NCBI GenBank assembly: GCA_947625215.1
Contig: CANQNL010000004.1
Location: forward strand, 1-38,206
Length of the DNA stretch: 38,206 bases
Direction of reading: 5' to 3'
DNA from: an uncultured Bacilli bacterium
Lineage (GTDB): Bacteria > Bacillota_I > Bacilli_A > RF39 > UBA660
Position 1 is the first letter of the stretch. Every line of letters begins with the position of its first letter. Both the position numbers and the translations under genes were made by a program. This document shows, in pieces, positions 5,535 through 6,023 of the stretch. Below the pieces are notes generated by a model. It did no database searches. It was not told the origin of the DNA and saw nothing but the letters and a program-made list of their open reading frames with translations.

Positions 5535-5558
5535 AGAACTTGTCAAAAGTTCTTTTTT
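5535..5558 (+). terminator. ssrA terminator
   Basis: AGAACTT-gtcaa-AAGTTCT followed by a T run. Confidence 0.75.
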
Positions 5559-5568
5559 ATGTTATTAT
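5540..5568 (+). promoter_or_regulatory. SigA-type promoter for candidate antisense sRNA
   Basis: TTGTCA-17bp-TATTAT with TGn extension; overlaps the ssrA terminator. Confidence 0.6.
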
Positions 5569-5574
5569 GTATTT

Positions 5575-5764
5575 ATCAAGGAAACTTACATAAAATAAAA
5601 AAGGAACATTCAATATTGCAGTGTTGAGTGTTACCCAATAATTTGTGTAGCACCTAATTCAAACTGTTTGAGTGTCATATTTTTATTGCTATTACCAATA
5701 AGGTAAGGAGTAATAAAATGATAGCAATAAGCCAAAGGACTTTTACAATAAAAGTTCTTTTTTT
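5575..5764 (+). ncRNA. Candidate type I antitoxin sRNA (~190 nt) antisense to the small peptide ORF
   Basis: Own promoter upstream; 12-bp hairpin 5605-5632 that pairs fully only on + (3 G-U pairs); terminator 5734-5764 with U tail. The 5' end is estimated. Confidence 0.55.
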
Positions 5765-5767
5765 CAT
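5675..5767 (-). CDS. 30-aa hydrophobic peptide MKKRTFIVKVLWLIAIILLLLTLLVIAIKI, candidate type I toxin
   Basis: Translated by hand (below the ORF-track cutoff). GGAGGG SD 5 nt before ATG, paired with upstream TCCTCC in a hairpin; single TM helix with basic ends. Confidence 0.7.
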   Translation of the reverse strand: MKKRTFIVKVLWLIAIILLLLTLLVIAIKI

Positions 5768-6023
5768 TGTATCCCTCCTCTCAAGATTGGAGGACGACAT
5801 TCACATCAAATATTCCTATAAAATTTATACTACAATTGATATTATAAAACAATTGAACATTGATTAATATTTATTATTTTATAATAGTGTGTGAGTCATT
5901 AATATTAGTTGATGCTTCTATATTGTATTTAATAGTTCACTGCAAAAATTTATTTAAAAAGATTTAAAATATCTTTAAAAGTATATCTGGCATAACCGTT
6001 TTAATTATTCTAAATAATATAGT

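Follow-up and report, generated by a model that had tools for sequence, protein, structure and literature searches.

The window analyzed here, positions 1 to 38,206 of contig CANQNL010000004.1 (38,206 nucleotides in all) from an uncultured Bacilli bacterium (assembly GCA_947625215.1), carries a transfer-messenger RNA (tmRNA) gene, ssrA, at 5140-5495 of the plus strand (ARAGORN; Rfam RF00023, 168 bits), followed by a 670-bp gap and then by a gene for a 1532-aa FtsK/EssC-like protein. In this gap, beginning ~5 nt past the CCA end of the tmRNA, lies a module of ~340 bp in which a short open reading frame (ORF) on the minus strand is opposed by a predicted small RNA (sRNA) on the plus strand. With a probability that we put at about 0.75, the locus is one copy of an undescribed, lineage-restricted family of modules resembling type I toxin-antitoxin systems.

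The ORF (5767-5675, minus strand) comprises 30 codons and a stop and reads MKKRTFIVKVLWLIAIILLLLTLLVIAIKI; an in-frame ATG upstream at 5800 would lengthen the peptide to 41 aa. Its relatives were reached through DNA: blastn of 5496-6164 finds matches in 22 of 24 genomes of the genus, often many per genome, and also at several other places in the organism's own 1.2-Mb genome, each with the same layout and a different small hydrophobic ORF, and tblastn of that genome with the 30-aa peptide gives no match beyond the peptide itself because the peptides of the paralogues differ. Two sets of modules were assembled, a first of 35 distinct modules and a second of 80, the latter taken from among the matches listed in an exact sRNA-motif scan of species-representative genomes. 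A Shine-Dalgarno sequence (SD) followed by a hydrophobic ORF is present in 31 modules of the first set, where the ORFs run to 23-33 aa (29 by a stricter rule), and, at the expected place, in 53 of the 80 modules picked solely by the sRNA motif. The family peptides are 23-34 aa long and of at least three types, with a basic N-terminus, a transmembrane (TM) stretch and usually a terminal K or KK; three subtypes share an N-terminal K/R stretch, the TM stretch and a C-terminal K. The initial annotation had named conservation of the ORF in relatives as a test of its proposal, and the 30-codon frame is indeed kept in the window-type subfamily, whose 16 distinct homologous ORFs all have exactly 30 codons; pairwise differences among them at codon positions 1, 2 and 3 number 731, 614 and 1014, and the replacements are conservative. 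The module thus has the small (<60 aa) hydrophobic TM peptide, encoded by a conserved ORF, that is a feature of the type I class.

The ribosome-binding site of this ORF is predicted to be occluded. The SD GGAGGG (5778..5773) pairs across a 10-nt loop with an anti-SD UCCUCC (5794..5789), forming a hairpin at 5773..5794 with a predicted energy of -9.9 kcal/mol on the minus strand, and the SD core has an unpaired probability of 0.06 in the window copy. The mean over 29 predicted toxin mRNAs is 0.11, compared with 0.45 in 130 long genes of the same genome that have a GGAGG SD, only 10% of which lie at or below 0.11; occlusion by mRNA structure is therefore a prediction for the family as well as for this copy. 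The sequence of the hairpin varies among subtypes, with pairing retained. Overlapping it, the conserved 5' end of the toxin mRNA, T5' (AGGAAUAUUUGAUGUGAAUGUCGUCCUCC; 5789..5817, minus strand), is complementary in the family to the toxin's own 3' untranslated region (3'UTR), and in the modules the message is predicted to begin with a conserved AGGAAyA. A predicted promoter, TTGTTT-17-TATAAA (5824..5852, minus strand), would start transcription at ~5817; the same layout aligns in the paralogues, and a strict regular expression recovers it in 19 of 29 modules, missing the window copy because its -10 box has a final A. Read on the minus strand, the stem-loop called SL1 below is followed by UUUUUUAUUUUAU, a combination that is plausible as the toxin-mRNA terminator, and the predicted full-length message would extend over 5585..5817 (~233 nt).

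On the plus strand, the predicted antitoxin promoter TTGTCA-17-TG-n-TATTAT lies at 5540..5568. The same layout is found by a strict regular expression in 28 of the 35 modules, and alignment A1 shows invariance or at least 90% conservation at positions 2, 5 and 6 of the -10 box. Since a single match of this kind occurs at chance frequency in AT-rich DNA, its weight comes from conservation in the paralogues. The short family form of the sRNA is placed at 5575..5687 (~113 nt, both ends predicted), where covariance model R1 scores 102.9 bits and the fold has z = -3.05; its parts are SL0 (5578-5587), an A-rich segment (5589-5602), SL1 (5603-5635), a remnant of SL2 (5651-5675) and a T-tail (5678-5687). 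All copies share one order, namely -35 box, TG-extended -10 box, SL0 with a GAAA loop, CATAAAATAAAAAAG, SL1, spacer, and SL2 with its T-tail. SL1 has 12 contiguous pairs and 2 more, and is predicted at -13.9 kcal/mol on the plus strand as against -6.3 on the minus strand. The elements from which the initial annotation had argued, i.e., the ORF, an SD facing TCCTCC 10 nt upstream, the plus-strand promoter, a 12-bp hairpin favoring the plus strand and a U-tailed terminator-like hairpin, were all recovered at the coordinates it gave, the promoter with the proviso on chance just given.

Conservation of structure argues that the plus strand carries an RNA gene. SL0 forms at least 4 bp in 34 of the 35 modules, in several compensating versions of the stem; RNAalifold recovers SL1 and SL2 with compensatory changes in 11 of 14 pairs; and in 33 of the 35 modules the plus strand gives the more stable fold of the sRNA region (-32.5 vs -26.6 kcal/mol). 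In an alignment of 115 copies, 96.7% of the cells pair, compared with 83.8% after shuffling and at most 41.5% after sliding, changes on both sides occur in 13 of 14 pairs, and the covariation score is reached by 0 of 500 shuffles, these figures being those of an alignment fitted to the structure of the covariance model and of related copies, for which shuffle controls overstate significance. Summed over the per-pair table, ~222 cells are wobbles (U.G) that pair on the plus strand, where the minus strand would have A.C mismatches instead. The toxin message is predicted to end before it reaches SL0 and the promoter, so constraint on that message does not explain their conservation, which argues for a separate plus-strand RNA. 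The conserved promoter and the covarying, plus-biased helices indicate, as far as sequence can, an RNA gene opposite the toxin, and the earlier picture of a small TM peptide behind an occluded SD, facing a conserved and structured RNA gene on the other strand, holds in this predicted form. Contigs of run X1, probably derived from DNA, cover mainly 5544-5617, which is the repeated part, and are silent on expression.

Recurrence of the module as a whole exceeds chance: in many genomes its helices covary and its reading frame stays intact. A covariance-model search for homologues, which the initial annotation had suggested, finds with R1 6 sRNA copies in the organism's own genome; in a survey of 151 genomes of the class, run with Infernal's stricter filters, R1 matches only within the organism's own family, in 4 of its 13 other genera, and in none of the 137 genomes from 25 other families. 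Genomes of ~1.0-1.3 Mb hold 4 to 11 sRNA copies each. The exact 5' motif of the sRNA occurs in at least 122 stretches of species-representative genomes, and the titles among the matches listed are those of metagenome-assembled genomes of uncultured gut Bacilli or 'Tenericutes', Mycoplasma sp. CAG:877, Candidatus Coprosoma and Candidatus Ventrenecus. Plasmid and phage collections contain no match to the module, and among 2.9 million viral contigs there is a single exact match to the motif (L177, 7334-8154 of 9124). Relatives carry tandem arrays with a spacing of ~370-590 nt; among the matches listed, three copies each stand in L113 and L127, and two each in L006, L014, L057, L064, L079, L089, L101 and L107. 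There are also orphan sRNA copies whose toxin ORF is truncated or deleted (G000:C41:8642-8900, L010, L011 and L018), and the orphan of contig C41 has an intact sRNA that is the best R1 match in the organism's own genome. In both tandem and toxin-less orphan copies the module resembles known type I families.

Of the 29 ORF-bearing modules, 24 have a plus-strand hairpin with a T-tail no more than 12 nt from the toxin stop codon, with predicted energies of -7 to -14 kcal/mol (L004, L005 and L007 among them), and three more have one within 33 nt; the T-tail is complementary to the lysine codons at the end of the toxin ORF. With the terminator in this position, the conserved sRNA overlaps the toxin 3'UTR, and the family design read from these sequences is a predicted convergent arrangement with 3' overlap, as in TxpA/RatA or BsrG/SR4. 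The initial annotation had instead proposed full overlap of the ORF in the manner of Ibs/Sib; as a family layout this did not stand.

Over its first ~30 nt the toxin mRNA repeats, in the same sense, SL1 of the cognate sRNA minus its loop, which makes this stretch complementary to the toxin's own 3'UTR. In 28 of 29 modules, minimum-energy folds of the predicted mRNAs join the first 32 nt to the last 75 nt by at least 10 pairs; the mean is 23.7 such pairs, compared with 3.9 when the 5' end is shuffled. The cognate 5'-3' duplex averages -33.9 kcal/mol, as against -23.3 for non-cognate combinations and -17.3 for the 5' end with the sRNA; direct pairing of the sRNA with the toxin 5'UTR, as in par, was considered, and in 28 of 29 modules the cis 5'-3' pairing is the stronger of the two. 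The module would accordingly be read as follows. The minus strand would yield an mRNA of ~230 nt for a membrane peptide of 23-34 aa, the presumed toxin, whose ribosome-binding site would be held closed by the local anti-SD hairpin and whose 5' end would pair with its own 3'UTR; from a strong-looking promoter the plus strand would yield the presumed antitoxin, a structured sRNA of ~115 nt that converges on the toxin gene and whose terminator T-tail overlaps the final (lysine) codons of that gene. Over ~100 nt of the toxin 3'UTR, the two RNAs would be fully complementary. By analogy with RatA/TxpA and SR4/BsrG, the sRNA would neutralize the toxin by pairing with this region, after which RNase III (encoded in the genome, 246.7 bits) would cut the duplex, and degradation of the duplex is most likely the main mode of sRNA action; the displaced toxin 5' end may also slightly tighten the occlusion of the SD.

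Several observations weigh against this interpretation, in addition to the two properties of the 115-copy alignment given above. A promoter scan yields 8 promoter-like sites where shuffled sequences lead one to expect 8.4, and 27 of the 80 motif-picked modules have no recognizable ORF. Blocking the sRNA site in silico moves SD accessibility only from 0.11 to 0.07, a shift small enough that it argues only weakly for a translational effect of the sRNA, and strong closure of the SD upon sRNA binding, of the kind attributed to SR4, is not claimed. The window copy is itself atypical: its SL0 has just 3 bp (-0.2 kcal/mol) and is the sole exception among the 35 modules; its SL2 region reaches only -3.1 kcal/mol, and the scan finds no stop-codon terminator; its cognate 5'-3' duplex has 15 pairs and -18.4 kcal/mol, which ranks 23 of 29; and its peptide has tryptophan at position 12, where the 15 other sequences of the subfamily have R, K, H or N. 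The copy is a mosaic. Segment 5500-5599 is nearest to paralogues in the same genome, 5600-5660 to modules of another peptide type and 5661-5840 to the window's own type, such that SL1 and the 5' arm of SL2 derive from one module subtype and the toxin half from another, which suggests recombination or gene conversion among copies. Loss of SL2 folding and of the stop-codon terminator is a likely result of this mosaic structure.

The atypical structure of this copy bears directly on how far its sRNA extends. The scan finds a single terminator-like site downstream of the promoter, namely the intra-ORF hairpin at 5737-5757 followed by seven T residues (5758-5764), and with this as the sole remaining terminator an RNA of ~190 nt (5575..5764) becomes plausible for the window copy; either the sRNA may run on to the intra-ORF site here, or the antitoxin half may be decaying. 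The proposal that such an RNA covers nearly the whole ORF and blocks the toxin by full antisense overlap, as Sib does with Ibs, gains from the strand preference of the hairpin (-7.7 kcal/mol on plus vs -3.7 on minus), from the fold of the longer form (z = -5.81 for 201 nt) and from the presence of the same hairpin in the nearest relatives, L004, L005, L006b and L007. Against it, L004, L005 and L007 are themselves among the 24 of 29 modules that have a stronger terminator at the stop codon, and the intra-ORF site is confined to 8 modules of the window's peptide subfamily; in the other peptide types the scan finds none comparable, the one terminator-like site within an ORF elsewhere (L026, 15 nt inside) being unrelated and differently placed. 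The hairpin moreover lies in the codons for T-F-I-(I/V)-K-V, which are palindromic by codon choice, and coding may explain it; the window copy most likely lacks the stop-codon terminator because it is a recombinant, not because the family is so designed. We therefore regard full antisense overlap as a doubtful, although possible, account of the module: of the ~190-nt RNA proposed by the initial annotation, what survives is its possibility in this one copy, and what falls is its status as the family design.

The remaining explanations dispense with the toxin, with the antitoxin or with the gene altogether. A small membrane protein of benign function, with an antisense regulator and no toxin-antitoxin relation, would fit the lack of a match to any named toxin family; yet 6 copies in a genome of 1.2 Mb, tandem arrays, deletion or truncation of the ORF with retention of the sRNA (C41, L010, L011 and L018), and an SD occlusion that is extreme by the standard of ordinary genes are traits more readily expected of selfish or toxic modules than of a housekeeping peptide, and we judge this explanation unlikely. 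Alternatively there might be no plus-strand transcript, and conservation would be limited to the toxin mRNA's 3'UTR and terminators and to the terminators of upstream tRNA or tmRNA genes. Minus-strand SL1 followed by UUUUUUAUUUUAU does make a good terminator tail, two further hairpins (A and B, below) could serve as plus-strand terminators for upstream genes, and promoter-like matches are common in this DNA; but U.G pairs, which the minus strand would turn into mismatches, are retained in the helices, and both SL0 and the -35 and -10 boxes are conserved beyond the predicted toxin 3' end, with compensatory changes in the stem, which makes the absence of a transcript more improbable still. Least probable is a non-coding repeat with inverted ends, similar to a miniature inverted-repeat transposable element (MITE) or a repetitive extragenic palindromic (REP) element, in which the ORF would be fortuitous. 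Multiple copies, the inverted repeat between the SL1 region and T5', and recurrence at tRNA 3' flanks are what such an element would show; a fortuitous ORF, however, would hardly hold to a frame of exactly 30 codons through 16 divergent copies, with third-position excess and conservative replacements, retain an SD at proper spacing in 29-31 of 35 modules, or preserve the N-terminal K/R, TM stretch and C-terminal K in three peptide subtypes.

A type I-like module is thus our preferred reading, and database searches place it outside the named families. The peptides of the family give only chance-level matches to unrelated families in Pfam and NCBIfam, and Rfam (E<=1) yields the tmRNA as its sole match and no antitoxin RNA family. 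Pfam, NCBIfam and Rfam hold models for named Gram-positive type I families. The inability of the initial annotation to assign the peptide to a named family is therefore reproduced with these collections, and its view of the locus as unannotated is borne out by a search with the 41-aa frame, which found only one related protein cluster in 5.8 billion, with one protein of 45 aa; the ESM Atlas gave no match above 0.78. Thirteen antitoxin families of type I systems are covered by Rfam, according to passages of the T1TAdb paper (PMC8594479). A literature search that left subscription journals and T1TAdb itself outside its reach turned up neither a description of the family nor any account of type I systems from this group of uncultured Bacilli. 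On this basis we class the module family as a new one within the known type I class.

The nearest known systems have a convergent antisense RNA that lies to the 3' side of the toxin mRNA and overlaps it in part, and this is the layout found here; passages of PMC8594479 list it for Gram-positive families and contrast it with the ORF-spanning arrangement of Ibs/Sib. No sequence or profile relation was found to Fst/RNAII, TxpA/RatA, BsrG/SR4 or other named Gram-positive families. With TxpA/RatA, BsrG/SR4 and the Clostridioides difficile CD2517.1/RCd8 type, the module shares the convergent antisense RNA at the toxin 3' side, the long perfect complementarity, and a small TM peptide with C-terminal lysines, and RNase III-type degradation would be expected here; BsrG/SR4 is reported to join degradation with a structural change around the SD (passages of PMC8594479, PMC6563280 and PMC8167048). 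The module differs from these systems in several respects. Its peptides, at 23-34 aa, are shorter than the toxins of B. subtilis (28-60 aa) and C. difficile (34-59 aa), according to passages of PMC6563280. Its sRNA ends at the stop codon, whereas the antisense RNAs of the TxpA/RatA and BsrG/SR4 type also overlap the ORF (T1TAdb, in passages of PMC8594479), and the predicted pairing of the toxin 5' end with the sRNA target site is a feature that the passages on TxpA/RatA- and BsrG/SR4-type systems do not mention. The modules are chromosomal, 15 of 86 of them at tRNA or tmRNA 3' flanks, and do not lie in prophages or beside CRISPR arrays, and neither sequence nor models match between the module and TxpA/RatA-, BsrG/SR4- or RCd8-type systems.

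Other systems share single traits with the module. Fst/RNAII (par of pAD1) and SprA1/SprA1as are likewise Gram-positive, with toxins of ~30 aa and convergent RNAs that overlap at their 3' ends; in Fst and SprA1, according to passages of PMC8594479, the functional interaction takes place outside the overlap, whereas in the module the predicted pairing of the toxin 5' end is far stronger with its own 3'UTR than with the sRNA (means given above, -33.9 and -17.3 kcal/mol), and the module has neither a Pfam or NCBIfam match to these toxins nor an Rfam match to their antitoxins. SD/anti-SD pairing and 5' stem-loops are among the descriptors that T1TAdb applies to toxin mRNAs (passages of PMC8594479). 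In the predicted 5'-3' closure of the full-length toxin mRNA with a sequestered SD, found in 28 of 29 modules, the family resembles hok/Sok and aapA1/IsoA1. The hok mRNA is closed by a long-distance 5'-3' interaction in which the SD is sequestered. For aapA1 mRNA the same is described in passages of PMC8167048. Both, however, come from Gram-negative bacteria, and their antisense RNA acts on the 5' portion of the message, whereas the antisense RNA of the module lies at the 3' side and covers the 3' partner of the pairing, and no sequence relation to either was found. Ibs/Sib is alike in its very small, highly hydrophobic peptide and its multicopy, tandem loci; Sib spans the entire ORF and is known from Gram-negative organisms (passages of PMC8594479), in contrast to the stop-codon terminator of the module, for which no ORF-spanning family RNA, no similarity to Sib or Ibs and no Rfam match was found.

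The position of the locus after tmRNA, which the initial annotation had noted, is part of a wider pattern. In the 15 of 86 modules with an upstream tRNA (7 Leu, 6 Thr and 2 Arg), the tRNA 3' end lies 92-105 nt before the CAT landmark and always on the sRNA strand, and the tmRNA of the window ends 94 nt before it; among 15 first-set loci scanned by ARAGORN, a tRNA ends at or overlaps the module start in L004, L005, L006, L008 and L011. Because the organism's own genome has just 31 tRNA and tmRNA genes, the association is, by rough estimate, far above chance. After the CCA end, the window, L004 and C14/C61 all carry GTGA-N3-4-TCTGTTCGAAC; the last of these, a paralogue split between contigs (G000:C14:1-121 joined to C61:5593-5617), is preceded by ...GGCACCA and then GTGA, resembling a tmRNA or tRNA end; ARAGORN and Rfam find no gene there, and the sequence may be the remnant of a tRNA 3' end. 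Between the CCA end and the sRNA lie two plus-strand hairpins. Hairpin A with its T-rich tail (5507..5524; found by terminator scan, -7.0 kcal/mol) is an upstream terminator-like element and part of the module, being present also in the copies C23 and C61/C14 of the same genome and in the relative locus L004. Hairpin B (5535-5553; 5535..5558 with its T-run), at -7.9 kcal/mol on plus vs -5.2 on minus, looks like a terminator or insulator and holds the -35 box of the sRNA promoter in its loop; in an alignment judged by eye its stem varies in sequence yet pairs in the paralogues (GAACTT/AAGTTC, CAACTT/AAGTTG). Both hairpins are retained in modules without a tRNA.

The association at constant distance is unexplained and may bear on how such modules spread. 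A more far-reaching reading, which we offer tentatively and think rather less likely to be true than false, treats the module as a three-way RNA switch that is also a site-preferring mobile element. Since SL1 of the antitoxin is a same-sense copy of the toxin 5' end, sRNA and toxin 5' end would compete for one site in the toxin 3'UTR, and this competition, if real, would couple closure of the mRNA, occlusion of the SD and attack by RNase III; the module would spread as a unit to tRNA and tmRNA 3' flanks, at a constant distance and bringing its own pair of upstream terminators, as a site-preferring mobile type I module of reduced-genome gut Bacilli.

Type I systems are difficult to detect from homology, and cultured model bacteria are the source of most of the families known. 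The module family, which gene callers leave unannotated, is an abundant one in an uncultured Bacilli lineage of the animal gut, and the covariance model and peptide patterns are ready for annotating these genomes. Its subtypes and mosaics form a natural series for the study of 3'-overlap antitoxins, SD occlusion and 5'-3' mRNA closure together.

Upstream of the tmRNA the window encodes RNase R (2534-4672) and SmpB (4632-5075). Directly after the module lies a type VII secretion-like cluster (6165-16079) that includes the 1532-aa protein, an FtsK/SpoIIIE ATPase with an FHA domain, as well as a WXG100 protein (11324-11608), a DUF4176 protein (14976-15308) and a YoeB/ParE-like type II toxin (15798-16079). 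Farther downstream (16898-19120, 23250-26972 and 29204-31168) are genes for a GH25 lysozyme, a D-Ala-D-Ala carboxypeptidase and a class A penicillin-binding protein, and a GerA/GerAC/spore-permease operon; given this lysozyme, carboxypeptidase, penicillin-binding protein and germination operon, the organism, with its genome of 1.2 Mb and relatives titled 'Tenericutes' or 'Mycoplasma sp.', seems to be walled and spore-forming.

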